Below are positions 11,496 to 63,960 of a stretch of DNA of 64,000 bases, one piece after another. Source of the stretch: an uncultured Candidatus Poseidoniales archaeon (lineage in GTDB: Archaea > Thermoplasmatota > Poseidoniia > Poseidoniales > Poseidoniaceae); the NCBI GenBank assembly GCA_905182715.1, contig CAJJCP010000003.1, positions 67,580-131,579 of the forward strand. Reading direction: 5' to 3'. The number at the start of each line of letters is the position of its first letter. Positions within the stretch are counted from its first letter, which is position 1. The notes beneath the pieces are model-generated. The model did not search any database, was not told the DNA's origin, and saw only the letters and a list, made by a program, of their open reading frames with translations. Both the position numbers and the translations under genes were made by a program.

Positions 11496-14294
11496 TCAAC
11501 GGTTCTTGAGGTAGTCTGCACCATACCAAGCCCATTGGTCCATTGTCCAACCTTCAGGCAATCCCTCAGGCGGCAATGGTGGAGTCACTGGGACGGTCGG
11601 AGCTGTTGGCATTGTGGGTGCAACAGGTGCAACAAGTGGGGTGAATGGGACAGGTATCTTTTGGTCAAAGTCGGTGTTGAGGGGATTTTGCTTTCCTCGT
11701 CGACTTACAACTCCAAAAGCAACCAACGCCAAACCAACTATTGCAATTCCCGCTATGGCCAAAACCATTGGCAAAGAGGAACTTTCTGCAGCGAACTGCC
11801 GAGCAGCATCATTTGGAAATACATCGCCTTCATCTGACCAACCATCGCCGTCAGTGTCGAGACAACCGATTCGGTCTTGATTTGAAGTTCCAGCAACCTC
11901 AGGACAGTCGTCTGACATATTCGTTCCTTGTTGATCAGGATGGCCATCTTCATCGATGTCAGACCAAAATCGGACATCATCTACGAAAACATCGAGGTTA
12001 TCTCCCCAGCCATCTCCATCAGAATCTGGGCAACCGAGTTCTTGTTCTGTTGAGGTACCAAATACTCCAGGGCAACTGTCGGGGAAGTTTCCATTTCTTG
12101 AATCTCCATACCCATCCATGTCTGCGTCAACGTGCTGCGTTGCATCTTCAGGGAAAGCATCACCAGCATCTGACCATCCGTCTCCATCGGTATCGAGGCA
12201 ACCAAACACATCTTCGGTTGAGGTTCCTGCAATATCAGGGCAAATATCTCCTCGGTATCCAGTCGAAGAATCTCCATAGCCATCATCATCTCGGTCTGCA
12301 TGTTGAGTGCTGTAAGTAGGGAATGCGTCAGCACCATCTGTGGCCAACCAGGTGGCATCAGGGTCTGACCAACCATCTCTATCCGTGTCCAGGCAGCCGA
12401 TTCGGTCATTCGATGAAATACCAGCTACTGTAGGGCAGTGGTCTCCTTCTAAACCGTCGACTTCATCGCCAAAGCCATCACCATCAAGGTCGGACCATTG
12501 AGTAGGTTCTGTAGGGAATTCATCGACAGAATCGGCATACCCATCAGCATCCCAATCATCGCATCCAATGACAGAACCAGCATCACTCGTACCTGCATTA
12601 TCGGGGCAATTATCAATACTGTCTGAGAATCCATCGTTGTCATCGTCAAGGTCTTCAGTATTATCTTCACAACCGTCTTGGTCGCCATCATTCGACATGA
12701 TTGAGAAGAAAGAAGGAGAACTCATTGGACAGAGGTCGACTTCTGCTGATGATTCCGAACATGTCCAAAACCCATCCATAACAGCAGCGTCACAAATACG
12801 GTCATTATCATCGTCGTAATCTTCACCAGCGTCTCTACAACCGTCCATATCATAGTCAGTAGAGGAAGAAGAGGTCCAAGCAAGATCTCCAGTTGCACAG
12901 TAATCAGCGTCATCATCCATACCATCGTTATCGTCGTCATTATCTTCGGTTAAATCCGCACAACCGTCCATGTCATGGTCGGTCGCCGTTGAAGATATCC
13001 AACTTAAATTCCCAAGAGCGCAGTCATCATCGATATCTAAAACCGCATCATTGTCATCATCCGCATCACAAAGGTCACCGAACGCATCACCGTCGTGGTT
13101 GGCTTGTGCAGCGTTCGCAATGAATGGGCAGTTGTCGACTTCGTCGCCGACGCCATCTCCGTCCTCGTCCATGTAAGGGTCCATTCGAATAACTTCGTCA
13201 CGTCCATTATCAACGTAGTAAAGATTTCCATTTGGCCCTATTTCAATACCCATAATCGAAGAAGCCGATGTTTGAACAGTTTCTGTTTCAGATGCACTTT
13301 TTCCATCGGAATTCAAATCAAATGCAGTCAGTTTCCCGTTACCATTTTGTGAGACAAACAATCGGTCACCGTCAAGTGCAATTCCCGAAGGCCTGTTAAG
13401 GCCAGTGGCAAGAACGCCCCATTCGATTCCAGTCATTTCAGAATATTCTTGAAGTGGTTCTAATCGAGTTGAAGAGCTCATTATGTTCTGTGATGAAACC
13501 GATGTGTCGTCAGTATTGACCCATACAACACGGTTCGCACCTGCATCTGCAATGTAGAGGATGCCTGAACTTTTATCCAAAACCATGTGGCCTGGAATCC
13601 CATAAGCATGAGTAAGTTGCACTTCAGAATACCTACGAACCATTCCATCTGAATGGTCATCTTCACCCGTGTCGTGGTCTAATTGGAAATCGTAGAAGAC
13701 CAATTCTCCGTAATATCCATCATTGTACCAGTATGCGTTGGCAGAATCATGAGCGATTCCTACGCCGTATGGGGATTCATGGAGCATGTCGATATGGCTG
13801 CCCAAAAGGCCGTTCCCGTTATTTTGATTTTCCACTGCAAAATGGCTTAAGGACGACGGCCACAAAGCCGGGCCCATGAAATTATTCGCTGCTCCTTGGC
13901 CACAGAATGTATTTCTCGTTTCTTGAGCAGAACCCCATTGCCAATCAAACTCGGGATGATATGCGCCAAACGAAATTGCACTTACTTCTTCAAGGAAATG
14001 GTTTCGGTTCGAATCTTTACGATTCTGTGAGGTCTGAGTCTCAAGTCCTGTGTCCTCAATAATGGTGATGCTGTCAGTATTTCGATTTGCCACCCAGAGT
14101 TCGTTTGCTCGACCTGGATGGAATTCTAAATCCCGAGGATCAGAGAGCTCATCGGTCGAATCCGCAATGACTACTTCATCGAAGCCAACACCAAATTGCT
14201 CAACCAAAGGCGCTTCCTTCGTGGCTGTAGCATAAGATGGGATTGAAAAGAGTAGAATGCTTAAAAGAAGAATAGCGGCTTGCTTATTCACCAT
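11496..14294 (-). CDS. Surface protein: signal peptide, NHL/beta-propeller-like domain, TSP3-like Ca-binding repeats with Cys-containing modules, TM anchor, Pro/Trp-rich cytoplasmic tail
   Basis: 932-aa ORF. N-terminus is MVNKQAAILLLSILLFSIPSYA. NHL-like strands are present (GILYIADAGANRVVWVN, LFVSQNGNGKLTAFD, NLYYVDNGRDEVIRMD). There are 4-5 tandem ~55-aa modules of the form GC.D.D.DGWSD..D.FP.D.TQ..D.D.DGYGD...CP...GTS. TM helix is LPMVLAIAGIAIVGLALVAFGVV. Confidence 0.85.
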   Translation of the reverse strand: MVNKQAAILLLSILLFSIPSYATATKEAPLVEQFGVGFDEVVIADSTDELSDPRDLEFHPGRANELWVANRNTDSITIIEDTGLETQTSQNRKDSNRNHFLEEVSAISFGAYHPEFDWQWGSAQETRNTFCGQGAANNFMGPALWPSSLSHFAVENQNNGNGLLGSHIDMLHESPYGVGIAHDSANAYWYNDGYYGELVFYDFQLDHDTGEDDHSDGMVRRYSEVQLTHAYGIPGHMVLDKSSGILYIADAGANRVVWVNTDDTSVSSQNIMSSSTRLEPLQEYSEMTGIEWGVLATGLNRPSGIALDGDRLFVSQNGNGKLTAFDLNSDGKSASETETVQTSASSIMGIEIGPNGNLYYVDNGRDEVIRMDPYMDEDGDGVGDEVDNCPFIANAAQANHDGDAFGDLCDADDDNDAVLDIDDDCALGNLSWISSTATDHDMDGCADLTEDNDDDNDGMDDDADYCATGDLAWTSSSSTDYDMDGCRDAGEDYDDDNDRICDAAVMDGFWTCSESSAEVDLCPMSSPSFFSIMSNDGDQDGCEDNTEDLDDDNDGFSDSIDNCPDNAGTSDAGSVIGCDDWDADGYADSVDEFPTEPTQWSDLDGDGFGDEVDGLEGDHCPTVAGISSNDRIGCLDTDRDGWSDPDATWLATDGADAFPTYSTQHADRDDDGYGDSSTGYRGDICPDIAGTSTEDVFGCLDTDGDGWSDAGDAFPEDATQHVDADMDGYGDSRNGNFPDSCPGVFGTSTEQELGCPDSDGDGWGDNLDVFVDDVRFWSDIDEDGHPDQQGTNMSDDCPEVAGTSNQDRIGCLDTDGDGWSDEGDVFPNDAARQFAAESSSLPMVLAIAGIAIVGLALVAFGVVSRRGKQNPLNTDFDQKIPVPFTPLVAPVAPTMPTAPTVPVTPPLPPEGLPEGWTMDQWAWYGADYLKNR

Positions 14295-40768: not shown

Positions 40769-42505
40769 ATGAATGATAAAAAAATAATGAGCGTGCTAAT
40801 TGCAATGTTCCTCGCTCTCTCTGCATTATCTGCAGTGAGCGGTGACGGATCTGACCCACTCGACCCATCTGATGGTGGCGCCGACTGGGACGGTGACGGT
40901 CTCACCAACTCCGAGGAGCAAAACGAAGGCACCAATATGAACAATGCAGACAGCGATGGCGACGGTCTCCCAGATGGCTGGGAAGTCTCGAATGGCCTTA
41001 ACCCAACTAATGGTGGCGATGGAAATGCAGACCCTGACGGCGATGGTTTAACCAATGCCCAAGAGTATGCAGCGGGTACTAACCCGAACAACGCCGACAC
41101 TGATGGTGACGGTAAGGCTGACAACGTTGACTCGTTCCCGAACGATCCGAACGACGGTGAATATTCCGACTCCGACGGTGACGGTATCCCTGATGCTTAC
41201 GATCCTGACTTTACCGAGTCAGGCGCAGGCGCAGGCGATGGTGGCACTGAAGGCGGTGGCGAATCTGATGCCGGAGCTCAAAACCCACAACCTGGTCAAG
41301 GACAAGGTCAAGGACAAGGTCAAGGACAAGGTCAAGGACAAGGTCAAGGACAAGGTCAAGGACAGGGTCAAGGACAAGGTCAAGGACAAGGTCAAGGACA
41401 AGGTCAAGGACAAGGTCAAGGACAAGGTCAAGGACAAGGTCAAGGACAAGGTCAAGGACAAGGTCAAGGACAAGGACAAGGTCAAGGACAAGGTCAAGGA
41501 CAAGGTCAAGGACAAGGTCAGGGGCAACAAGGTCAACAGGGACAGCAAGGTCAACAGGGACAGCAAGGTCAACAAGGCCAGCAAGGTCAACAAGGCCAGC
41601 AAGGTCAACAAGGCCAGCAAGGTCAACAAGGCCAGCAAGGTCAACAAGGCCAGCAAGGCCAGCAAGGTCAACAAGGTGAACAGCAAGACAATGGACAAGG
41701 TCAGCAACAACAAGGTGGCGAACAAGGTGGTCAACAAGGCCAGCAAGAAGGTCAAAACCAGAACGGCGATAACCAAAACGGTCAGAGCCAACAACAACAA
41801 GGTCAAACCCAAAACGGTCAAGAAGGCCAACAGGGTCAACAGACCGACCAACAACAACAACAGCAAACCGACAACCAGGGTCCTGCCGACAACGACGGTG
41901 ACGGAATTCCAGACAACATTGATAATGACAACGACAACGATGGTATCCCCAACGATGTCGATGACAATCCAAACGACCACGACAACGACGGAATTGACGA
42001 TGCTCTTGACAGTGATGATGACGGCGATGGAATCGACGACTCTGAGGAAACTCAAGACGGCGATCCAAACACCAACATCTACGACCACGACAACGACGGA
42101 ATCACAGATTCCGTTGACCTCGACATCGACAACGACGGAATTGACAACTACAATGATTGGGAAGATTCGAATGGTAATGGTATAATGGATGCTGGTGAAG
42201 ACCGCAGCCGTGACCACGACAACGATGGCTCTGATGATGGAGTAGATACTGATGACGACAACGACGATATTCTCGACGTTGACGAAATTGGTGGAATCTC
42301 TGGAAACTACCGCTACGACCATGACAATGATGGAATTTGGGACCTCTCCGACACAGACGACGACAACGACGGCCTTGCCGACTGGTTCGAAGTCAATGAC
42401 GGAAACTCAATGACCGGTCAATTCGATCACGACAACGACGGAATAGACGACCACGAAGATGCTGACGACGATGACGACGGCATTCTCGATGAACTCGAAG
42501 CTTGA
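40769..42505 (+). CDS. Secreted TSP3-like Ca-binding repeat protein with a central (GQ)n/(GQQ)n low-complexity domain
   Basis: 578-aa ORF. Signal peptide is MSVLIAMFLALSALSAVSG. N-terminal repeats read DWDGDGLTNSEE..GTN..NADSDGDGLPDGWE. These are followed by the GQ/GQQ tract and then ~20 D.D.DG loops. There is no C-terminal TM. Confidence 0.85.
   Translation: MNDKKIMSVLIAMFLALSALSAVSGDGSDPLDPSDGGADWDGDGLTNSEEQNEGTNMNNADSDGDGLPDGWEVSNGLNPTNGGDGNADPDGDGLTNAQEYAAGTNPNNADTDGDGKADNVDSFPNDPNDGEYSDSDGDGIPDAYDPDFTESGAGAGDGGTEGGGESDAGAQNPQPGQGQGQGQGQGQGQGQGQGQGQGQGQGQGQGQGQGQGQGQGQGQGQGQGQGQGQGQGQGQGQGQGQGQGQGQGQGQGQQGQQGQQGQQGQQGQQGQQGQQGQQGQQGQQGQQGQQGQQGQQGQQGQQGEQQDNGQGQQQQGGEQGGQQGQQEGQNQNGDNQNGQSQQQQGQTQNGQEGQQGQQTDQQQQQQTDNQGPADNDGDGIPDNIDNDNDNDGIPNDVDDNPNDHDNDGIDDALDSDDDGDGIDDSEETQDGDPNTNIYDHDNDGITDSVDLDIDNDGIDNYNDWEDSNGNGIMDAGEDRSRDHDNDGSDDGVDTDDDNDDILDVDEIGGISGNYRYDHDNDGIWDLSDTDDDNDGLADWFEVNDGNSMTGQFDHDNDGIDDHEDADDDDDGILDELEA
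41294..41674 (+). repeat. Coding microsatellite: 12-nt unit ggtcaaggacaa (GQGQ), then 9/18-nt units (GQQ)
   Basis: Read directly. 41294-41527 alternates ggt/gga caa almost perfectly, about 39 GQ by hand count, with one cag variant near 41363 and one phase slip near 41471. 41522-41674 holds about 17 GQQ units built from ggt caa caa / ggc cag caa. Confidence 0.95.
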
Positions 42506-53148: not shown

Positions 53149-53223
53149 GGGCCCGTGGGTTAGCTTGGCCTATACTTGGCGGCTGGGGGCCGTCAGACCC
53201 CAGTTCAAATCTGGGCGGGCCCA
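53149..53223 (+). tRNA. tRNA-Pro (anticodon GGG)
   Basis: Hand fold. Acceptor is GGGCCCG/CGGGCCC. The D arm has a GG loop. Anticodon stem is GGCGG/CCGTC with loop CUGGGGG. T arm is CCCAG-UUCAAAU-CUGGG and the discriminator is A. It starts 14 nt after the rpoN stop. Confidence 0.9.
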
Positions 53224-53314
53224 CTTGCACCATTGTAAATTAAATGCTATCAAAACCCATTTTTCACAGACCGGTAACCTTTGGTTTGATATGGGGCTTT
53301 GAAAAGTAGGTATC

Positions 53315-55846
53315 ATGCGAACTGTTCGGGCACTGTGTTTGACCCTTCTCCTCCTGCTGACTCCACTGTCTCTTCTTGCAACACCTGCAACGGCTTCAGA
53401 TACTTCAGTAAGCGCCGATACAACATGGTCGGGGGCTGTTGTCCTCACCGGAAACGTCACCGTCATGAACGGCTCAACGCTCACGCTTTCTCCAGGTACA
53501 ACGGTCGATGGCGGCGATGGGTATTGGATTCGAGTTGATGGAACACTCCTTGCATCTCAAACCGACTTCTTCTCCTCTCAAGTACCACTTACCGGCGGCT
53601 CACATGGAGCTGGTCTATGGACTGGAATTTACATTGCCGCCAAAGGCCACGCGGTTTTGGATGAGGTAACAATCCAGAATGCGAAAACTGCACTCAAGGT
53701 GGAAGGTCAACTTTCAGCCTACAAAATCACCATCGAAGATGCATATATCGGTGTCAATGTGTTCGGTTCGGCAAATATTGAATCGCTTACAGCACAACAC
53801 ATCGATTATGAAGTTCTTCGAAATTCTGGAAATCTAAATCTTTCAACAGGCACATTCACTGATATTGCCGGCGGTCTTTGGTCGACAGGCATGAGCACTG
53901 TTGATACGGTGACCATTTCCCAAGCAGGGACAGGTTTGCGTTCGACAAGCGGTACACTCTCTGCAACAGGCATTGGATTCATCGATACAACCGTTGCAAT
54001 TGCTAGCCAGCAAGGAGCATCTACTACGGTTCAAAGCATAACTGCCAATAACGTCGCTTTGCTTATCGATGCCGCAGACAGTGATGATTTAACCGTCTCG
54101 AATGGTGCAGTTTCAGGACATCGCCTTCTTTTAGCGAACGGAGCGAGTTCCTTTTCAATCAATGATATCGAATTTGAAGGAAACCCATCTGAATCACTAC
54201 CTGTAGTGGACCAAAGATGTACGGGCACCTGTAGTTGGGATGGCATTGAAGTTTCCAATGTAACCAACGGCTTCTTCCTTTCAGGTTCTGGTAACCATTC
54301 AATATCTGGGCTCGATCTTTCTGCATCAGAGCGAGGGATTGAAGGAACAGGAATGGGACATATAAGTCTCGAATTCATCAATGTAACAGCCGGAACAAAA
54401 GGCATAGAGTTCCGCGACCCTGATAGTAGTCTGAATGAAGTTTCAGTTGAAATGACATCGACCACATCGACCGCTTACGACCTTCTCGATGGCCATCACC
54501 AATGGACTTCTGTTGGAGCGTCAAAAACATATTCTGCCCAAGACACAACCTCAATTGGCCTTACTGCATGGTATGCAACCATCGAATCAACTTCTTTCTC
54601 ATCACTTCATTTTGGTAACGGCATACAGGCAAACCATGCCGAAATATCTGGCAGCTCGTTTTCAATTCAAGATGGAAAAGGCATCGGGATTCAATTAGAA
54701 CGCAGTTCACTCATCGTTGATACATTGAATACTCGCGCATACCCTGATGGCGTTGTTCTCGACAAATCTTCAGATCTCCACGTTTCCGATTGGACCGCAG
54801 CAACTCATACGACACCATTGTCCATCAGCACCGCTTCAAACGCCATCATTCGAAACTTCCAGCCTCAAAACACTCCAACCTCTTCCTCCGATGCTCTAGG
54901 AGATGGCACACTCATCTATGGCGGTTCAACAACAGCGAACATTGCAGTATCGTCTGCCTCGTATCTTGAAGAAACTCCGGTAACCTTCACCGACTTAGCT
55001 GGAAACCCAGTTGAAGCAACAATCAGCGTCCATGGTTTTTCAATTCAAAGCGACGTGAACGGAGGAGCAACCCTTCCACTCCTCAACAGTGGGTCTTCAG
55101 TTGATGTCACCCTTGCCGGTGCTGGTGTACGCGTCATACTGTATGGCTCCCAAATGGGGCAATCAGTCCAAGTACCAGTCATTCCACAAGGCGATTGGGT
55201 TATTTCAACAGGTCAATTTGTATTCCTCGGTCCTCGACCTGATGGATTGCCACATACAATGTCTGGCGACCTTACAATCTCCACTGGGGCAGGTTTAGAA
55301 TTGTCTGATACCTCTCTGGTTTTACCTGCTGATGGTAGCGCCGAGATTCAAGGTTCAGGTGAATTGACCGGTAGTGGCTCATCTCTTGTTTCGAACAGTC
55401 TTTCACTTGGTTTTGATTCAGTGCTCACGCAATCAGATGGAGGTCAAGGAATGACCATTGCCTCTAACCTTACATGGGCTTGTCAAACAACACGTAGCGT
55501 CTCAAACATTGACATTCTAGGTTCTTTGATGCTTCAGCCCGGATGCCCAGTTGAGATGCTTGGAGGAAGTGTTGGAGGAACGGTCACAGCACTCACCAGT
55601 GCTGAATTGACGATTCTCTCTTCTCTTCAACTCACTGTTCTCGACAAAGGCGAACCTGTTGCAGGTGCATTCATTTCGATTGATGGAGCAGTTACTTCAA
55701 CCGATGTGAATGGAGAAGTTTCGACCACAGCAACCGCACGACACGTCGATGATGATTCTGAAACGGTCGGCGGCATCAAAAACATTAATCTTCAAATTGG
55801 ATCATTCATGGATTTCGTAACCTGGGATTCCATCGACTTCGTTTGA
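53315..55846 (+). CDS. Exported parallel beta-helix-like repeat protein
   Basis: 843-aa ORF. Signal peptide is MRTVRALCLTLLLLLTPLSLLATPATA. Long Gly/Ser/Thr/Asn-rich short-strand repeats follow (W.G.V.L.G.V.V..GSTLT..PGT.V). No C-terminal anchor. Confidence 0.8.
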   Translation: MRTVRALCLTLLLLLTPLSLLATPATASDTSVSADTTWSGAVVLTGNVTVMNGSTLTLSPGTTVDGGDGYWIRVDGTLLASQTDFFSSQVPLTGGSHGAGLWTGIYIAAKGHAVLDEVTIQNAKTALKVEGQLSAYKITIEDAYIGVNVFGSANIESLTAQHIDYEVLRNSGNLNLSTGTFTDIAGGLWSTGMSTVDTVTISQAGTGLRSTSGTLSATGIGFIDTTVAIASQQGASTTVQSITANNVALLIDAADSDDLTVSNGAVSGHRLLLANGASSFSINDIEFEGNPSESLPVVDQRCTGTCSWDGIEVSNVTNGFFLSGSGNHSISGLDLSASERGIEGTGMGHISLEFINVTAGTKGIEFRDPDSSLNEVSVEMTSTTSTAYDLLDGHHQWTSVGASKTYSAQDTTSIGLTAWYATIESTSFSSLHFGNGIQANHAEISGSSFSIQDGKGIGIQLERSSLIVDTLNTRAYPDGVVLDKSSDLHVSDWTAATHTTPLSISTASNAIIRNFQPQNTPTSSSDALGDGTLIYGGSTTANIAVSSASYLEETPVTFTDLAGNPVEATISVHGFSIQSDVNGGATLPLLNSGSSVDVTLAGAGVRVILYGSQMGQSVQVPVIPQGDWVISTGQFVFLGPRPDGLPHTMSGDLTISTGAGLELSDTSLVLPADGSAEIQGSGELTGSGSSLVSNSLSLGFDSVLTQSDGGQGMTIASNLTWACQTTRSVSNIDILGSLMLQPGCPVEMLGGSVGGTVTALTSAELTILSSLQLTVLDKGEPVAGAFISIDGAVTSTDVNGEVSTTATARHVDDDSETVGGIKNINLQIGSFMDFVTWDSIDFV

Positions 55847-55850
55847 GCAC

Positions 55851-58007
55851 ATGTTCATGGCTTCGACAATTACGCCGGGTTCTCTTTCCAACTGGCTTGT
55901 ACTCGAAGCCCAATGGAGTCCATACTTCCTCGATGGCGATCTCGATGTTGAAGCATTAGGGACACTTACCATCGATGATGGCGTTTCACTGCGTATTTCC
56001 GAAGGAAGTCAAATCAGTGTTGATGGCCGTATTGATGCAGGAGCAGCAACCCTCTCCTCAACAGGCTCGGGCTCTCGTTGGGGTGGTTTTGTTATGGGTG
56101 GCGCCAGTTCCACTCTCGATTTGTCCTTGACCAATATCGTTGAAGCCTCACCGGCTTTGACAGTTGACAGTCAAGGAACCTTCATTGGCGACGGGATTAC
56201 CATGGCGCGTTCTTCAGGGGCTGACCCTTTAATTGTCATCAACAGTAACAGTAATGCGAACATTACCCTCAAAAATTCACACATGTATGACGCTGGTAAC
56301 GGGTGTATCAAGGCATTCCCATCGTCGAGTCACTTGACACTCTCTGAAGTTACACTCGAATCATGTAACGGTATTGGCGTCTGGGCTCGACAAATATCTC
56401 TGAACTTCGACACGGTTGTTGTTGGGGATGAAGTATCAACTGGATTTGATTTCACTGCAGTTACCGGAGTCTTGTCGAACATTGATGCATCCTTGTTCAA
56501 TGGCAGTGGTCACATTCTTGCTTTAGATTCAATCGATGGGGACTTTACGGTTTCTCACTTGAATGGAACCGTTGGAGCAGGTGCAGGGATCACCGGTTCT
56601 AACAGCCGCGACATCCAGATGAACCATATCCAGCTCACCGGCTCACCGGGACTTGATTTTGACAACTCAGCAGGAATGTTACACGATGTTATACTGAACG
56701 GCCCTGGTTCGGGAACTGCGCTCATAAGCCATCACGGACGCTCTTCGGACTCTCTGATCATTGAAGACCTCGTTGCCTTTTCTTATTCAGTGGGTATTGA
56801 TTTACACGGAGATGAAGGCGATGGTGCAATTGCTCCATTGATTCTACGTAACCCAGACATCATCACTTCGACCGTTCTTGCATCAGAGAATTATCCAGCC
56901 CGAATCGAAGGTGGTATCATGTATGGAGTCATTTCTGCATCGGGGATGATTACCATTGACCTCATCGACACATCCACTGAAAATCCTTCAATGTATGATG
57001 GTGCAGAATTGCGAACTTGGAAGACATTTACGCTCAGTGCTCAACTGAACGGGGTCCTTCAGGATGTTGGATTTTCAATACACACGCTTGGGCTTGAGCC
57101 TGCCTTTTCAACATCGGTGTTTGGTAATTCGCTGCTTGTAGAAATCCCGGTAGCATTCGCAGGTAACCAAACCAGTTCAACACTCGTGTCGTTCAACGTC
57201 ACCACCCAAGCCAGTGGTTTACCGGATACCGTTCATGATACGAATTATTCAGAGACAACTTCATTACTCATCGAAATCGCATTAGTTTCAAACAATCCAC
57301 CAACTGTGGAAATCATTCAACCATACTCTGGTGAGCGTGTTATGGAGTCTGTTCACCTCCTCGCAGCAGCAGAATATTCTGATGATTTAGATGCTGTACA
57401 GGATTTAACTTTGGTATGGATTATTACTGATTCCGCCGGAGTTGAAGTGATGCGTGGTCCAAATGAACCACAATACAACATCACGGATTTACAATTTGGA
57501 TTGTATGTTCTTGAATTACGAGTGACTGATACGTTGGGCGCTACTTCAAGTGATGCGGTTGATTTTGAAGTCACAGAACTTGACAGTGATGGAGATTGGA
57601 CCAATACCTGTATATTCACTTTGAACACCAGTGTGTGGTTTGATAAAATCAATGGCTATTCATGCGGACCAGACAGTGAAGATACCGACGATGATAACGA
57701 CGGCCATCCCGACACTCGAGACGCATGGCCTGTTGATCCATGTGCGTGGCAAGATACCGATAATGACGGCCTGCCGAATAATGTCAATTGCCCAGAAGGA
57801 AAAACGACCTATCTTGTTGCAGACCCAGACGATGATAACGACGGCATCCTCGACATATTGGAAGGTGAAACAGCAACTGATAGCGGTGACTTTTCCACTG
57901 GGACACTCTTGCTCATCGTTCTCATTCTTGCGGGCATTGGCCTGTTTATGGCAAGAGTAAAGCGCGGTGGCGGAGAACTTGGCCCGATTAACGAGAAACA
58001 TCTGTGA
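55851..58007 (+). CDS. Beta-helix-like repeat protein with Ig-like region, TSP3-like loops and C-terminal TM anchor; lacks its own signal peptide
   Basis: 718-aa ORF starting 4 nt after the previous stop in another frame. The opening module (WSPYFLDGDLDV.ALGTLTIDDGVSLRISEGSQISVDG) resembles the start of 53315-55846. The end reads DTDDDNDGHPD...DTDNDGLPN...DPDDDNDGILD, then LLLIVLILAGIGLFMARVKR. Confidence 0.75.
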   Translation: MFMASTITPGSLSNWLVLEAQWSPYFLDGDLDVEALGTLTIDDGVSLRISEGSQISVDGRIDAGAATLSSTGSGSRWGGFVMGGASSTLDLSLTNIVEASPALTVDSQGTFIGDGITMARSSGADPLIVINSNSNANITLKNSHMYDAGNGCIKAFPSSSHLTLSEVTLESCNGIGVWARQISLNFDTVVVGDEVSTGFDFTAVTGVLSNIDASLFNGSGHILALDSIDGDFTVSHLNGTVGAGAGITGSNSRDIQMNHIQLTGSPGLDFDNSAGMLHDVILNGPGSGTALISHHGRSSDSLIIEDLVAFSYSVGIDLHGDEGDGAIAPLILRNPDIITSTVLASENYPARIEGGIMYGVISASGMITIDLIDTSTENPSMYDGAELRTWKTFTLSAQLNGVLQDVGFSIHTLGLEPAFSTSVFGNSLLVEIPVAFAGNQTSSTLVSFNVTTQASGLPDTVHDTNYSETTSLLIEIALVSNNPPTVEIIQPYSGERVMESVHLLAAAEYSDDLDAVQDLTLVWIITDSAGVEVMRGPNEPQYNITDLQFGLYVLELRVTDTLGATSSDAVDFEVTELDSDGDWTNTCIFTLNTSVWFDKINGYSCGPDSEDTDDDNDGHPDTRDAWPVDPCAWQDTDNDGLPNNVNCPEGKTTYLVADPDDDNDGILDILEGETATDSGDFSTGTLLLIVLILAGIGLFMARVKRGGGELGPINEKHL

Positions 58008-59097: not shown

Positions 59098-61323
59098 ATG
59101 GCGCAGACCGGCCCTTCTCCAACAGATGAGCCGGCGCGAATAGCGTGGCTTGCTGAACAAATTGGCCACCATTCCCATCTCTACTATAACGTCGCAGAAC
59201 CCGAAATCTCTGACGCTGCCTTCGACCGATTATGGGATGAACTCAACACACTTTCACCTGAACACCCTCAACTCAATCGTGTTGGAGCAGATGTCGATCC
59301 TGGCTCGGTTAAAGTTGAACACATGTTTCCAATGCGCAGTCTTGACAAGGCAACGGGAGATGAAGAAATACATCATTTTGTTCATGAGACAGCATTAGGG
59401 GCAACTCGCTTTCTCTCCCAACCAAAACTCGACGGTTCTGCTCTCTCCTTAGAGTATCGAAAAGGTCGATTAGTCCGAGCAGCAACACGGGGAAGCGGAG
59501 AGAGAGGCGAAGATGTTACTCGAAATGCTCGTAAAGTTGGCAACGTCCCTGAGCGATTGAACGTCGATGTTGATGTCCATGTTCGCGGTGAAGTCGTTAT
59601 GGAGCGAGATGTTTTTCATTCGAAATACAGCGACATTTCTCCAAACCCGCGAAATCTTGCGGCTGGCGCTCTTCGTCAAAAGCGAGCCGAAGGGAAAGCA
59701 AAGCCCAGTGACTTGGTCTTTCAAGCATATGATGCGAAATTCCCATCCACTGCCGACAGCCATCCAGATGCAATCAAGCCACCAAGTACTGAATTCGACA
59801 GCGATATCCTCGATTGGTTAAGTGAGGTTGCAGGTATTTGCCCGGCACCTTGGAAAATCCATCAAGCCGAAACACCTTCCGAAGTCACTCAATTGATGAC
59901 CCAAACAACCCAACATTGGGCGAATATCAGAGATCAACACCCGTTTGAAATCGATGGAGTGGTGTTCAAAGTCGATTCCCTGGCTACCCGAGACTTGCTT
60001 GGTATGACTGCCCATCATCCCCGATGGGCATTGGCGTGGAAGTTCCCTCCTGAAGAAGCCACATCGGTGATTCTCGAAGTCAATTGGCAAACAGGGCGAA
60101 CAGGCGTGGTTACACCAGTCGCTCGCATCGCCCCTCAAACGGTGGGAGGTGTGACTGTTGAACATACGACGCTGCACAATGTTGGCGAAGTCGAACGCCT
60201 CGGGCTCCAACTTGGAGACAGAGTTCTCATCGTTCGCAGAGGAGATGTCATTCCCAAAATTGAATCTGGATTAGGCCCAGCCAAACCAGAAGACCTGGCA
60301 AATAGGTACCATGCTGACGGAACGCTCTTCGATGAAGAATTACCACTTGACACCACCATCGTGATTCCCCCCCATTGTCCTGCCTGTGAAGGGGGTTTGG
60401 AAACCGATGGAGCATTTTTGCGATGTACGGACCTTATGTGCGATGCTCGAACGAGCCGTTCGATTCTCTATTGGTGCAGAGCGCTTGAAATGGACGGGAT
60501 TGGCGAAAAGCTCGTCGAGCAGTTACTCGAGCAAAACCATATCAAGAATATCCCCGATTTATTCCGCCTTCAGCAAGCAGAACTGGAGAATATGGACCGA
60601 ATGGGTGAGAAGTCTGCTCTCAATGTTTTGAATGAACTTGGTAAAGTCAAGGAACTCCCGCTTGGTAAATTCTTGCATGCGTTGGGCCTTCCAGGGATTG
60701 GGCCAGAATTAGCAACAGCTGTAGCCCAACACTGCGGAGATTTCGATTCACTTTTACAATGGGTCGAGGATGCTTTTGCGACCGAAGAGGATGCGAACTT
60801 CGGCTCATTGCTTGATGAAAAAGAGAAACCATATTCTGAAAATCAAGCCATTCGTTCACTGTGTGATGTTGAAGGAATTGGCAGCAAGGTCGCCCTCCAA
60901 GTTCGCGACGGACTTTCAAAAAGAAAAGAAATGTTACTCGACCTCGCAACACTGATCACTCTTCTTGACGAGCCAAAAGCAGCATCTGGCGGGCCACTTG
61001 ATGGGATGACGTTTTGTCTAACCGGTACACTTCAAAAACCACGAAAAGAAGTTCAATTAGCTATCAAGGCCGCAGGCGGTAAGGTCGTAGGCAGTGTTTC
61101 TTCACAACTCAGCGTTTTACTCGCAGGAGAAAAAGCAGGTTCGAAGTTGGCAAAAGCAGAATCCCTTGGCGTACAAGTCTGGTCGGAACAAAAACTCGAA
61201 GCAGCACTTGGTCAATCAACACCTCCTGCGCAAACCCACACATCTCCAGAGCGTGAGCCTGAGATGAATTCAGAAACTAAAAAAGAAGAGAAGAAACAAC
61301 CATCTCTTTTTGATTTCAACTGA
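59098..61323 (+). CDS. ligA: NAD+-dependent DNA ligase (bacterial type) with a C-terminal extension
   Basis: 741-aa ORF. The adenylation motif is KLDGSALSLEY. The OB fold, the Zn finger (CPACEGGL...CTDLMC), HhH repeats and BRCT (FCLTGTL...AGGKV..SVS....LLAGE.AGSKL.KA..LGV) follow. A ~45-aa tail then ends in KKQPSLFDFN. Confidence 0.95.
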   Translation: MAQTGPSPTDEPARIAWLAEQIGHHSHLYYNVAEPEISDAAFDRLWDELNTLSPEHPQLNRVGADVDPGSVKVEHMFPMRSLDKATGDEEIHHFVHETALGATRFLSQPKLDGSALSLEYRKGRLVRAATRGSGERGEDVTRNARKVGNVPERLNVDVDVHVRGEVVMERDVFHSKYSDISPNPRNLAAGALRQKRAEGKAKPSDLVFQAYDAKFPSTADSHPDAIKPPSTEFDSDILDWLSEVAGICPAPWKIHQAETPSEVTQLMTQTTQHWANIRDQHPFEIDGVVFKVDSLATRDLLGMTAHHPRWALAWKFPPEEATSVILEVNWQTGRTGVVTPVARIAPQTVGGVTVEHTTLHNVGEVERLGLQLGDRVLIVRRGDVIPKIESGLGPAKPEDLANRYHADGTLFDEELPLDTTIVIPPHCPACEGGLETDGAFLRCTDLMCDARTSRSILYWCRALEMDGIGEKLVEQLLEQNHIKNIPDLFRLQQAELENMDRMGEKSALNVLNELGKVKELPLGKFLHALGLPGIGPELATAVAQHCGDFDSLLQWVEDAFATEEDANFGSLLDEKEKPYSENQAIRSLCDVEGIGSKVALQVRDGLSKRKEMLLDLATLITLLDEPKAASGGPLDGMTFCLTGTLQKPRKEVQLAIKAAGGKVVGSVSSQLSVLLAGEKAGSKLAKAESLGVQVWSEQKLEAALGQSTPPAQTHTSPEREPEMNSETKKEEKKQPSLFDFN

Positions 61324-61422: not shown

Positions 61423-63960
61423 ATGAATCGAAGGGCACTTGCCATGGTTTTGGTTCTTCTTGTCCTACTCGGCAGCTCGCCGCTGACGCAGGGAAAATCT
61501 GCTGGGATGCAGAAACAAAGTTCCGGCTGTAACTGTCATTCACAATCCGGCTCAACCGCAGCGACCGTGGTCGTGACTGGCTACCCCACTCAATATACGG
61601 CCGGCGTAACTTCGACCTTGACCATTACAGTGAGTAACGGCGTTAGTGGTTCAAACGGCGGTTTTAGTCTCGAAGCCGATAAGGGCTCATTGACCGCACC
61701 GTTCTCATTTGCTGTCAGTGTGAACAACGCCCAAGACAGCGCTACCCATTCATCCACGGGTACGAGTCAAAGGTCTTGGGACGTAGATTGGACTGCGCCT
61801 TCCAGTGGTTCAGGTATCGCAACCCTTTCTGTTGCCGGTTTGACTGCAAATAACATGAACGGCAATTCAGGTGACCGATGGGCTACAGCATCCTATCAAA
61901 TTTCAGAAGCGGGTGCAGTTCCAAATACCGCTCCGGTTGTTTCGAATGTCATGTTGGGTCCGAACGGGGCAACGACCACATCGTCACCTGCGCTCAGTTA
62001 TGTCTATTCAGATTCAGACAATGATCCAGAATCTGGGACTCAAATTCAATGGTACAAAGATGATGTTGAACAAATAGGCCTTCAAGGACTCACTCTTTCA
62101 GCATCAGCAACTTCGAAGGGAGAAGAATGGAAGGCAACTGTAACGCCGTCAGACGGTTCAGACGCCGGCACTCCACAGACGAGTAATACATTGATCATTG
62201 CGAACTCCATACCCACTTTGACAACGCCAACAATTCAGCCGGCTAATCCAACCTCTGATGACGACTTAACGTTCAGCAGTACTTCTTCTGACAACGATGC
62301 GGACCAGGTTCATTTTGATATTCATTGGTTCCTTGAGGGCGTACTCGTCTCCGAATTAAACGATATCGAAACTCTTCCGTCTTTTGCCACACGTAGTGGT
62401 GAATCATGGACTGTTGAACTTCGAGCGAATGATTCCGAAAACACCTCGCAATGGCAATCGTCCTCCGCCGTTGTTATTGGCGCTGGGCAAACAAATACCG
62501 CCCCCGTAGCATCGAGTGTTGTACTGGGTCCCGCAACAATTTACACAACCGATGACCTTTCAGTCAACTATATTTTTACAGATATTGACGGCGACCTTGA
62601 AGTCGATTCCGAAATTAGTTGGTTCCTCAACAACGCACCGTTTACGTTTGCTGAAAACAGCAGAACACTGCCTTCGAGTTTTACCGAAAAGGGCCAAAAT
62701 TGGTTTGCGGAAGTACGCGTGAATGATGGCACTGAATGGTCACCTTGGTCTTCAAGTAACACACTTGTTGTTGAAAATACCCTGCCTATCACAGTATCTC
62801 TTTCACTGAGTCATACAGAAGCGAAAACTACCGATTCGGTCACAGTTGAGTTTACTCAATCCGATATCGATGGAGATGGAGAATCAGGTTCGGAGATTAC
62901 TTGGTGGAACAACGGCGTTCAGCAATCATCTCTTACAGGGCAGATAACTCTCCCTTCTGAAGCTACATCGAAAGGCGAAATGTGGACGGTAATGGTGAAA
63001 GCAGGCGATGGTACCGGTATGAGTGAAATCGCCCTTTCTGCAAACGTCACTGTCATTAACAGCGCCCCAACAGCAAGTTTCATCATTTCTTCGAATGTGA
63101 CTGCTCTTGGGCCATTGAATCTTACCATAACCACTGATGATGTGGATGGCGATGATGTAGAAACAGAGATTATGTGGTACCGTAATGGTTTCCTCGAAGG
63201 TTCTCTTACCGGTGAAATCAGCGTCCCAACCCTCTTACTTGGTCCAGGCCAAACTTGGGCAGCACACGTCACACCAACGGACAGTGAAGCAGCATCTGGG
63301 GCTACTGTTATCAAAACAATCACCGTTGTTAACATCGAACCCACTGCTCAGATCAATGTTCAAAACGAGGTCATTTGGATTGGAGAATGGACGACACTTG
63401 ACGCTGCACAATCGAGCGATGTCGACGGACGGATTGTAGAGGCAACATGGTCTTGGACCGATGCTACAGGCACCATAAATTCGGATTCAGGTTTCGAAAT
63501 TCACATGATTCCTCTCGCCAATATGGTTGTTACACTCACCGTTCTCGATGACATGGGCTCAACTGCTACTGCGGAACTACAACTCTCGGCAGTTCAAGGC
63601 CCAATGATTACTGATTTCAACACCGAATCGAAAGGCAAGTCGGTTGTTTTAGAGTGGGGCTGGAATGGGCCAAATGCTACCTTTAACATTCTGCGTAACG
63701 GAATCCTGATTGGAACAACAGCCTCAGAATCATACACCGACGCGCCTCTGTTTGCTGGCGAAACCTCCTACGCCATACAACCGCAAATTGGAGACATGAC
63801 GTTGGTTGCAGGAACTTCAGGCGCTCAAACAATCATGATTGAAACCGCTGCTGCTGAAGCACCAGGTCCCTCTTCAACCGGAGGCCTCGTCTCTGGAATT
63901 CTTTTCTTATTGATTGGAATTGTCGTAAGCGGATTTGCTTTGATTGGACGGAGGGATTGA
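61423..63960 (+). CDS. Surface protein: signal peptide, N-terminal Cys/His-containing beta domain, five ~95-aa tandem Ig-like modules, PKD-like domain, C-terminal TM anchor
   Basis: 845-aa ORF. Signal is MVLVLLVLLGSSPLTQG. The repeated module is N[ST].P....[YF].[YF].D.D.D.E....I.W[YFW].N...LP...T.KGE.W...V...DG. The PKD-like stretch is LDAAQSSDVDGRIVEATWSW. The tail is STGGLVSGILFLLIGIVVSGFALIGRRD. Confidence 0.85.
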   Translation: MNRRALAMVLVLLVLLGSSPLTQGKSAGMQKQSSGCNCHSQSGSTAATVVVTGYPTQYTAGVTSTLTITVSNGVSGSNGGFSLEADKGSLTAPFSFAVSVNNAQDSATHSSTGTSQRSWDVDWTAPSSGSGIATLSVAGLTANNMNGNSGDRWATASYQISEAGAVPNTAPVVSNVMLGPNGATTTSSPALSYVYSDSDNDPESGTQIQWYKDDVEQIGLQGLTLSASATSKGEEWKATVTPSDGSDAGTPQTSNTLIIANSIPTLTTPTIQPANPTSDDDLTFSSTSSDNDADQVHFDIHWFLEGVLVSELNDIETLPSFATRSGESWTVELRANDSENTSQWQSSSAVVIGAGQTNTAPVASSVVLGPATIYTTDDLSVNYIFTDIDGDLEVDSEISWFLNNAPFTFAENSRTLPSSFTEKGQNWFAEVRVNDGTEWSPWSSSNTLVVENTLPITVSLSLSHTEAKTTDSVTVEFTQSDIDGDGESGSEITWWNNGVQQSSLTGQITLPSEATSKGEMWTVMVKAGDGTGMSEIALSANVTVINSAPTASFIISSNVTALGPLNLTITTDDVDGDDVETEIMWYRNGFLEGSLTGEISVPTLLLGPGQTWAAHVTPTDSEAASGATVIKTITVVNIEPTAQINVQNEVIWIGEWTTLDAAQSSDVDGRIVEATWSWTDATGTINSDSGFEIHMIPLANMVVTLTVLDDMGSTATAELQLSAVQGPMITDFNTESKGKSVVLEWGWNGPNATFNILRNGILIGTTASESYTDAPLFAGETSYAIQPQIGDMTLVAGTSGAQTIMIETAAAEAPGPSSTGGLVSGILFLLIGIVVSGFALIGRRD

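Follow-up and report, generated by a model that had tools for sequence, protein, structure and literature searches.

An NAD+-dependent DNA ligase of bacterial type from Marine Group II archaea ends in a conserved PIP-box-like peptide that is a probable PCNA tether

The ligase gene, its domains and its host

The subject of this report is the C-terminal tail of a DNA ligase encoded on contig CAJJCP010000003.1 of an uncultured Candidatus Poseidoniales archaeon, within a stretch of 64,000 nucleotides that was analysed as a whole and is referred to here as the window. The gene, at 59098–61323 on the forward strand, appears in the list of open reading frames (ORFs) as a complete frame of 741 codons plus stop. 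It specifies an NAD+-dependent DNA ligase of the bacterial type, LigA, whose 741-residue product reads ...LEAALGQSTPPAQTHTSPEREPEMNSETKKEEKKQPSLFDFN, or ...VWSEQKLEAALGQSTPPAQTHTSPEREPEMNSETKKEEKKQPSLFDFN, at its C-terminus before a TGA stop codon (61321–61323, forward strand). A first-pass annotation of this DNA had reported a bacterial-type LigA ending in QPSLFDFN at 61297–61323, and that description holds to the nucleotide: residues 734–741 occupy 61297–61320, and the stop codon fills the last three positions. The interpretation developed below is that this terminal peptide is probably a tether by which the replicative ligase of these organisms would be held to the archaeal sliding clamp, PCNA.

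The protein belongs to the LigA family by scores that exceed the curated cutoffs across its full length, with 529.6 bits against the NCBIfam model TIGR00575 (cutoff 444.45; residues 18–700) and 525.2 bits against PRK07956 (cutoff 369). It is not of the haloarchaeal type, scoring 395.7 bits against PRK14351, for which the cutoff is 1051. The modular order of the family is present in full and on one strand. Domain Ia, which recognizes NAD+ (PF22745; residues 13–59; 59134–59274), is followed by the adenylation, or nucleotidyltransferase, domain (PF01653, E = 5e-51; residues 72–319; 59311–60054) with its KLDG motif at residues 110–113, and then by an OB-fold domain (PF03120; residues 323–391; 60064–60270). 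Next come a four-cysteine zinc finger (C427, C430, C443 and C448; 60376–60441) that is shortened and is missed by PF03119, a helix-hairpin-helix DNA-binding domain (Pfam HHH_5 and HHH_2; residues 463–555; 60484–60762), and finally a BRCT domain (residues 632–705; 60991–61212). K110, D112 and G113 of the KxDG motif and all four zinc-finger cysteines are invariant in an alignment of 105 sequences.

The matches to TIGR00575, PRK07956 and the Pfam models all stop at residue 700–705 (PF00533 itself covers 632–700), and an AlphaFold2 model made from the 105-sequence alignment places the last BRCT helix at residues 697–705. The tail had initially been put at about 45 residues with a start at 61183, but that position corresponds to residue 696 and lies inside this last helix. 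The tail proper (residues 706–741) comprises about 36 residues, namely a 28-residue linker (QSTPPAQTHTSPEREPEMNSETKKEEKK; residues 706–733; 61213–61296, forward strand) and the eight-residue PIP-box-like motif Q734-P-S-L737-F-D-F740-N741, where PIP denotes a PCNA-interacting peptide. A Lys/Glu-rich stretch forms the end of the linker, next to the motif, a C-terminal peptide that bears the motif being KKEEKKQPSLFDFN. The body of the model is confident (mean predicted local distance difference test score, pLDDT, of 89.6); residues 708–735 fall below 50 and the motif itself lies at about 45–50, with a short helical turn of three residues predicted at L737-F-D (737–739). The tail is, on this model, predicted to be disordered.

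The host had been taken to be archaeal, and the gene content of the window bears this out: it encodes a thermosome (Cpn60_TCP1), a DnaG-like Toprim protein, a KH-domain secretion-type ATPase and an HVO_0163-type helix-turn-helix protein. The best 120 homologues of the ligase are 62–100% identical to it; wherever a name is attached to one of them, it is Poseidoniales, Poseidoniaceae or Ca. Poseidonia. Among GTDB species representatives, the closest LigA loci (L001 at 93% and L023 at 92%) come from a Poseidoniaceae metagenome-assembled genome (MAG) and an uncultured-euryarchaeote MAG. By these markers and identities the contig is assigned to a Marine Group IIa archaeon (Poseidoniaceae, Poseidoniales).

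Conservation of the tail across Poseidoniales

If the tail matters to the enzyme, it should recur in the LigAs of related archaea, as the first-pass annotation had anticipated. The alignment agrees with that expectation. Across 45 species-level Poseidoniales genomes with a complete LigA C-terminus, the protein ends in x-x-[ST]-L-x-[DE]-[FYW] plus zero to two further residues in all but one. Over these 44 sequences Leu is invariant at position 4, position 3 is always Ser (26) or Thr (18), position 6 is Asp (33) or Glu (11), and position 7 is aromatic (Phe 26, Tyr 13, Trp 5). Position 1 is Gln in 27, with Pro (10), Thr (5), Ser (1) or Asp (1) in the others; position 2 is variable and is Leu in none; position 5 is Phe in 26, Leu in 9, Asp in 5, Ala in 3 and Ser in 1. 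Position 7 is the last residue of the protein in 20 of the 44, and Leu, Ile or Met is found at position 8 only in tails of the Thalassarchaeaceae type. The remaining genome (L026) was considered as a motif-less exception and rejected as such, its LigA gene being frameshifted in a MAG of 4x coverage, with QKSLMDF encoded 60 nucleotides downstream in another frame.

Three flavours of the motif track phylogeny. Poseidoniaceae carry Q-x-S-L-x-[DE]-[FY], a second group carries (G)PKTLF[DE][FY], and TGTLDDW[LIM] is the form of a group into which the named Thalassarchaeaceae genomes fall. The linker between the BRCT domain and the motif is hypervariable: its length lies anywhere between 13 and 38 residues, Glu, Ser, Lys and Gln are frequent in it, and it cannot be aligned across species. 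The codons beneath the fixed residues are themselves diverse. All six Leu codons are used for the invariant Leu at position 4, and position 3 draws on both families of Ser codons as well as on Thr. Such codon diversity under fixed residues points to selection on the peptide rather than to shared recent ancestry, and the motif is, on these comparisons, under strong purifying selection across the order.

Specificity of the motif

So far as these sequence comparisons reach, the motif is specific to archaeal LigAs. In the window, one of the 135 ORFs of at least 100 residues ends in Qxx[LIMV]xx[FYW]. In the Poseidoniales loci surveyed (about 1 Mb) every intact LigA (44/44) has the motif in its strict C-terminal form, and a looser criterion, by which the motif could lie anywhere in the last 16 residues, is satisfied by 4 of about 830 non-LigA ORFs: one DNA methylase, a DEDDh exonuclease present in two copies, and an ORF of 130 residues that is probably spurious. 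That canonical LigA ends at the BRCT domain, as had been asserted, is confirmed by the wider family, most of whose 150 representatives (clustered at 50%) stop within a few residues of that domain; the tail motif occurs on none of 93 bacterial LigAs and on none of 80 LigAs from viral contigs (the best 80 LigA loci in IMG/VR). The tail peptide finds zero matches in the PDB. A viral origin for the archaeal gene was also considered and is rejected, these same 80 loci being at most 37% identical and untailed.

Two of the non-LigA matches may be described in their own right. The methylase, an N6/N4 DNA methyltransferase (PF01555) at L046:15210–16094 (forward strand), ends in QSKLDDYSH and is the sole non-LigA ORF to pass the strict criterion. 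Its genome encodes a LigA of the Thalassarchaeaceae type, and the methylase may itself be PCNA-tethered. The DnaQ-like DEDDh exonuclease lies 2–6 kb from LigA in some Poseidoniales (L053:14202–15029 and L024:18058–18885, both on the reverse strand). Near LigA it ends in QSLLSDWLSTKNTD or RETLREFISSVRDR, a few members of the family having a PIP-like QSLLSDWL or TLREFI at the C-terminus; as a second clamp client the exonuclease was rejected, because neither the aromatic residue nor the spacing is conserved among 120 homologues.

PIP box or beta-clamp motif

The clamp used by Archaea is PCNA (PMC3914693). The archaeal PIP box has been summarized as QxxLxxFx (PMC7776575), and the consensus has also been written QxxI/L/MxxFF/Y, usually at the extreme terminus of the client protein, with archaeal clients that deviate at the aromatic positions documented (PMC2737543). 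The bacterial beta clamp, for its part, is bound by QL(S/D)LF (PMC4976356).

The peptide had been read at first pass as a match to Qxx[LIM]xx[FY] at the extreme C-terminus, and this is what one finds. Q734 occupies position 1, the aliphatic L737 position 4 (Leu in 44/44) and the aromatic F740 position 7 (Phe, Tyr or Trp in 44/44), and the motif forms the last eight residues of the protein, at the end of a linker with pLDDT below 50. The second aromatic residue that eukaryotic PIP boxes place at position 8 (FF or FY) is replaced here by N741; the archaeal form QxxLxxFx omits it. QPSLFDF also closely resembles what we take to be the ending of Pyrococcus furiosus RFC-L, QATLFDFL, and it resembles the p21 peptide QTSMTDFY as well; a literature search for the literal string QATLFDF found nothing.

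A likeness to the beta-clamp motif had been proposed alongside the PIP assignment, and here the outcome is divided. QPSLF does agree with Q1-L2-[SD]3-L4-F5 at four of the five positions, but the pattern of the family as a whole contradicts the likeness. Leu never stands at position 2; position 5, at which the beta-clamp motif demands Phe, is the least constrained of positions 3–7; and the [DE]-[FYW] pair that is invariant as a class at positions 6–7 falls outside the beta-clamp motif altogether. Constraint on positions 1, 4 and 7, with position 5 free and Leu absent from position 2, argues for PIP grammar and not for that of the beta clamp.

One could suppose instead that the peptide is a relic, a QL[SD]LF motif inherited from a bacterial ligase and functionless in an archaeon that lacks a beta clamp. 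The four shared positions would be explained, and the nearest non-archaeal relatives in the LigA subfamily (P0233, P0252 and P0257) do have a similar linker, followed at the C-terminus by QLPLF, QLNLF and QLLLF. A functionless sequence, however, would not be expected to outlast an order-level radiation in which synonymous sites have become saturated with no change to Leu, Ser/Thr, Asp/Glu or the aromatic, and the lax position 5, the missing Leu at position 2 and the fixed pair at positions 6–7 are not what such a relic would leave. The relic explanation is strongly disfavoured, and we hold it to be very improbable.

Other archaeal LigAs and a retron-linked subfamily

A comparable ending is present on another archaeal branch of the same subfamily. 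The LigA of a member of the Promethearchaeota (Asgard) at L057:9870–11852, on a contig that also encodes an Arf/Ras/Roc-type GTPase, ends in KKKKSSTLDNFFT, with the PIP-like sequence SSTLDNFFT. Related LigAs of uncertain host end in QATLDRFG (P0122) and QATIDRFG (P0275), and P0277 ends in QATLF; P0122 is the nearest outgroup to bear a QATLDRFG tail and is not of the haloarchaeal type. P0125, from an archaeal-looking contig with a TFIIB zinc ribbon and diphthamide synthase, ends in YQTKLFQ, and the motif is absent from the archaeal-like relatives P0276 and P0278–P0281.

In a neighbour-joining tree of LigA residues 14–700 with 100 bootstraps, the Poseidoniales LigA clade is recovered with a support of 100 and a second archaeal-like group with 95, and both groups, together with P0137, P0233, P0252 and P0257, are set apart from ordinary bacterial LigAs with a support of 100, all in a tree that is thinly sampled and at risk of long-branch attraction. 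Three independent characters bear out the subfamily so defined: a two-residue deletion between Cys2 and Cys3 of the zinc finger, common to the archaeal, retron-linked and phage LigAs; a further two-residue deletion in the next helix, where HFASRxAMDI becomes YWC--RALEM; and loss of the match to PF03119.

Several of the non-archaeal members keep unusual company. P0233 and P0257 are ADP-ribosylglycohydrolase–LigA fusions of 1078 residues, encoded directly after a retron-type reverse transcriptase in bacterial-looking contexts. The reverse transcriptases of these two-gene cassettes (L056:3232–7910 and L058:996–5650) score 563 and 505 bits against the PADLOC model RT_XIII, and the fusions end in a disordered linker followed by the beta-clamp-type QLLLF or QLPLF. 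In L058 the gene next after the fusion encodes a PhdYeFM antitoxin. The cassette may be an NAD+-using, clamp-docking retron effector. The P0137 LigA (L059:10001–12013), finally, is found on a 124-kb phage-like contig with Dam, Bro-N, HU, MazG and many small ORFs, and there are hints that this short-zinc-finger subfamily of LigA travels on mobile elements.

The tails of P0233, P0252 and P0257 run through a Pro/Glu/Ala-rich linker to their terminal pentapeptides, and in P0252 and P0257 basic residues immediately precede the motif. It is conceivable, and we offer it tentatively, that the clamp tether is older than the archaeal gene: that it arose in a mobile-element subfamily of LigA whose beta-clamp ending was later re-tuned to a PCNA motif, with displacement of the ATP-dependent ligase. 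The shared tail plan would be BRCT domain, disordered linker, basic patch, clamp motif and free carboxyl terminus. After transfer into archaea, QLxLF would have become Qx[ST]Lx[DE][FYW] by a small number of substitutions plus an extension of two residues, and the re-tuned ending would have let LigA take over from the ATP-dependent ligase as sole replicative ligase in an archaeal order that is among the most abundant in the ocean. The ancestry of the tail architecture within the subfamily is suggestive only, the tree having the limits given above and the linkers being unalignable, and the archaeal tail may be better described as re-tuned than as newly added. Should this history be true, it would amount to a traceable switch of a docking peptide between the clamps of two domains of life, non-homologous in sequence.

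A putative PCNA tether on the replicative ligase

We regard the LigA tail as a probable PCNA tether, and PCNA docking is supported by every prediction that could be tested here. Some 28 residues of flexible, disordered linker would present, beyond the BRCT domain, a C-terminal Q-x-[ST]-L-x-[DE]-[FYW] peptide that is most likely a PIP box. The hydrophobic pocket of PCNA beneath the interdomain connector loop would be filled by Leu737 and Phe740, Gln734 would supply the usual polar contact, and the Lys-rich stretch beside the motif would aid docking electrostatically. Tethered in this manner to the clamp that is left on DNA after Okazaki-fragment synthesis, the ligase would be delivered to the nicks that it has to seal. 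We infer that PCNA is most likely the partner and that the tether most likely matters for replication.

The ligase repertoire of these organisms, which the first-pass annotation had named as a point to check, is consistent with this. In Table 3 of Borrel et al. (2014; PMC4153887) the Marine Group II (MG-II) genome is marked X for ATP-dependent DNA ligase, and its NAD-dependent DNA ligase is bracketed to denote bacterial origin; the same table credits MG-II with PCNA, RFC, FEN-1, PolB and PolD. If LigA is the sole ligase, it must seal Okazaki fragments within a PCNA-based replisome, and a PCNA tether would then be expected. The gene content of the window includes no replisome client, and phmmer searches with PCNA of human and of P. 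furiosus and with human FEN1 as queries gave no match to PCNA or FEN1 in the window and the LigA loci (3064 ORFs in about 1 Mb). Motifs of ATP-dependent ligases are likewise absent from the LigA loci searched, a result that is uninformative about whole genomes.

Several observations weigh against PCNA docking. The Gln of position 1 is missing in 17 of the 44 species, where Pro, Thr, Ser or Asp takes its place. In most species no second aromatic residue follows at position 8, which is either missing or non-aromatic, 20 of the proteins ending before it, and the binding of LigA to the clamp, if any, may be weak or non-canonical. The absence of an ATP-dependent ligase rests on one genome of 2012 in one published table. 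Moreover, one well-sampled clade of archaeal LigAs (P0287, with 29 members and seen on three independent contigs) has no tail of any kind. On its contigs (L053:10001–12130; also L054 and L055) the LigA stop codon lies 14 nucleotides from a convergent PAC2 gene, and these contigs are marked as archaeal by an L18e-L13-S9-RpoN operon. An archaeal LigA therefore need not carry the tail.

Dispensability of this kind would be in keeping with a peptide that is unrelated to recruitment and serves instead as an autoinhibitory intramolecular latch, a degradation signal or a localization signal, roles that conserved hydrophobic or aromatic peptides at the C-terminus can play elsewhere. With the tail at pLDDT values below 50 and the motif scarcely higher, however, no confident intramolecular docking is predicted. 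The HbYX pattern of proteasome activators does not fit either, the residue before the aromatic being acidic and not hydrophobic. Similar endings, furthermore, are found on independent archaeal LigAs and on none of the 173 bacterial or viral ones, which ties the peptide to the archaeal replication context. A role outside recruitment thus seems to us decidedly unlikely.

The irregularities at positions 1 and 8 speak for a third possibility, in which the tail docks some other replisome or repair partner, such as RPA, PolD, GINS, FEN1 or a nuclease, and LigA is recruited by way of that protein. Nothing in this short conserved linear motif on its disordered tail specifies the receptor, and a motif with Gln in 27 of 44 species and an unconserved position 8 does depart from the canonical PIP box. 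On the other side, recognition of a Q/L/aromatic pattern at positions 1, 4 and 7 is not known for any other archaeal hub. The constrained positions 1, 4 and 7, the extreme C-terminal location and the basic neighbours are also those of published PIP boxes (PMC2737543; PMC7776575). A partner other than PCNA is accordingly unlikely in our estimate, if less so than a latch or a sorting signal.

Genomic surroundings

Several very large Asp/Thr/Ser-rich secreted or surface proteins are encoded on either side of LigA (window positions 40769–42505, 11496–14294, 53315–58007 and 61423–63960); they bear repeats of the thrombospondin-type-3 or PKD-like kind and are anchored by C-terminal transmembrane segments. 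Proteins of this sort are typical for Marine Group II genomes and have no relation to the ligase. Between 43100 and 50988 three long ORFs (749, 1044 and 1027 residues), without any Pfam match, follow one another with overlapping ends in different frames; they may be a single giant surface-protein gene split by frameshifts or sequencing errors. A tRNA-Pro (GGG) is called by ARAGORN at 53149–53224, below the gathering threshold of Rfam; the other two tRNAs were found by both methods.

Implications

Replication proteins are thought to be poor candidates for transfer between domains of life because they must fit a network of partners. A bacterial-type ligase nonetheless appears to have displaced the native archaeal enzyme in a globally abundant lineage, and the sequence suggests a minimal adaptor, a clamp-docking peptide of eight residues on a flexible leash. 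If the tail does dock on PCNA, it would explain how the non-orthologous displacement of a core replisome enzyme could succeed, and the family would provide a natural system for the re-tuning of clamp motifs between the beta clamp and PCNA. The tail is also a feature that annotation pipelines have overlooked, and it could guide the engineering of PCNA-tethered NAD+ ligases. We found no published description of a PIP motif on any archaeal LigA, and Raymann et al. (2014) discuss a bacterial-type NAD+ ligase for Halobacteriales only; an NAD+-dependent LigA whose PIP-type C-terminal tail is conserved throughout an abundant order of archaea reported to lack the ATP-dependent ligase appears to be undescribed.

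Comparison with known systems

That a terminal peptide can bring a ligase to a sliding clamp is itself known. Human LIG1, Sulfolobus solfataricus Lig1 and Pyrococcus furiosus Lig are replicative ligases held on the PCNA ring by a short peptide in a flexible segment, the very logic that is proposed for LigA, and PCNA-tethered ligases seal the nicks between Okazaki fragments (PMC6212786). These enzymes are ATP-dependent and of a different ligase family, whereas the LigA of the window is NAD+-dependent and bacterial in type; their motif is N-terminal or lies in the DNA-binding domain, while that of LigA follows the BRCT domain at the very end of the protein; and their binding to PCNA has been measured, that of LigA being predicted. 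In its location the LigA motif is closer to that of the archaeal RFC large subunit, PolB, the DP2 subunit of PolD, FEN1, RNase HII and NreA, which carry QxxLxxFx at the same extreme C-terminus (PMC7776575). Those are native proteins for which PCNA binding has been demonstrated in several species, whereas LigA is foreign and usually lacks position 8.

A bacteria-derived LigA at work in an archaeal cell has a precedent in Haloferax volcanii, where LigN coexists with an ATP-dependent ligase and the two are redundant for an essential function (PMC7776575; PMC1684257). The H. volcanii literature (PMC7776575; PMC1684257; PMC2737543) makes no mention of a PIP motif on LigN.

In bacteria, too, the NAD+ ligase can meet the clamp of its host through a peptide near the BRCT domain, as does Helicobacter pylori LigA with 554-QEFIRSLF-561 (PMC4976356), although there the clamp is DnaN and the grammar of the motif another. 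The interaction is not universal in bacteria, the beta-clamp of Mycobacterium tuberculosis being reported not to bind LigA directly (PMC3335792).

The DNA ligase of phage T4 offers a final parallel, since it also uses a flexible peptide, LDFLF, to bind a trimeric clamp, gp45 (PMC6212786). The T4 peptide differs from the LigA tail in that it lies in an internal loop of an ATP-dependent phage enzyme and binds as an alpha-helix rather than as a 3-10 turn. It copies the C-terminal tail of the T4 polymerase, SLDFLFG (PMC6212786).

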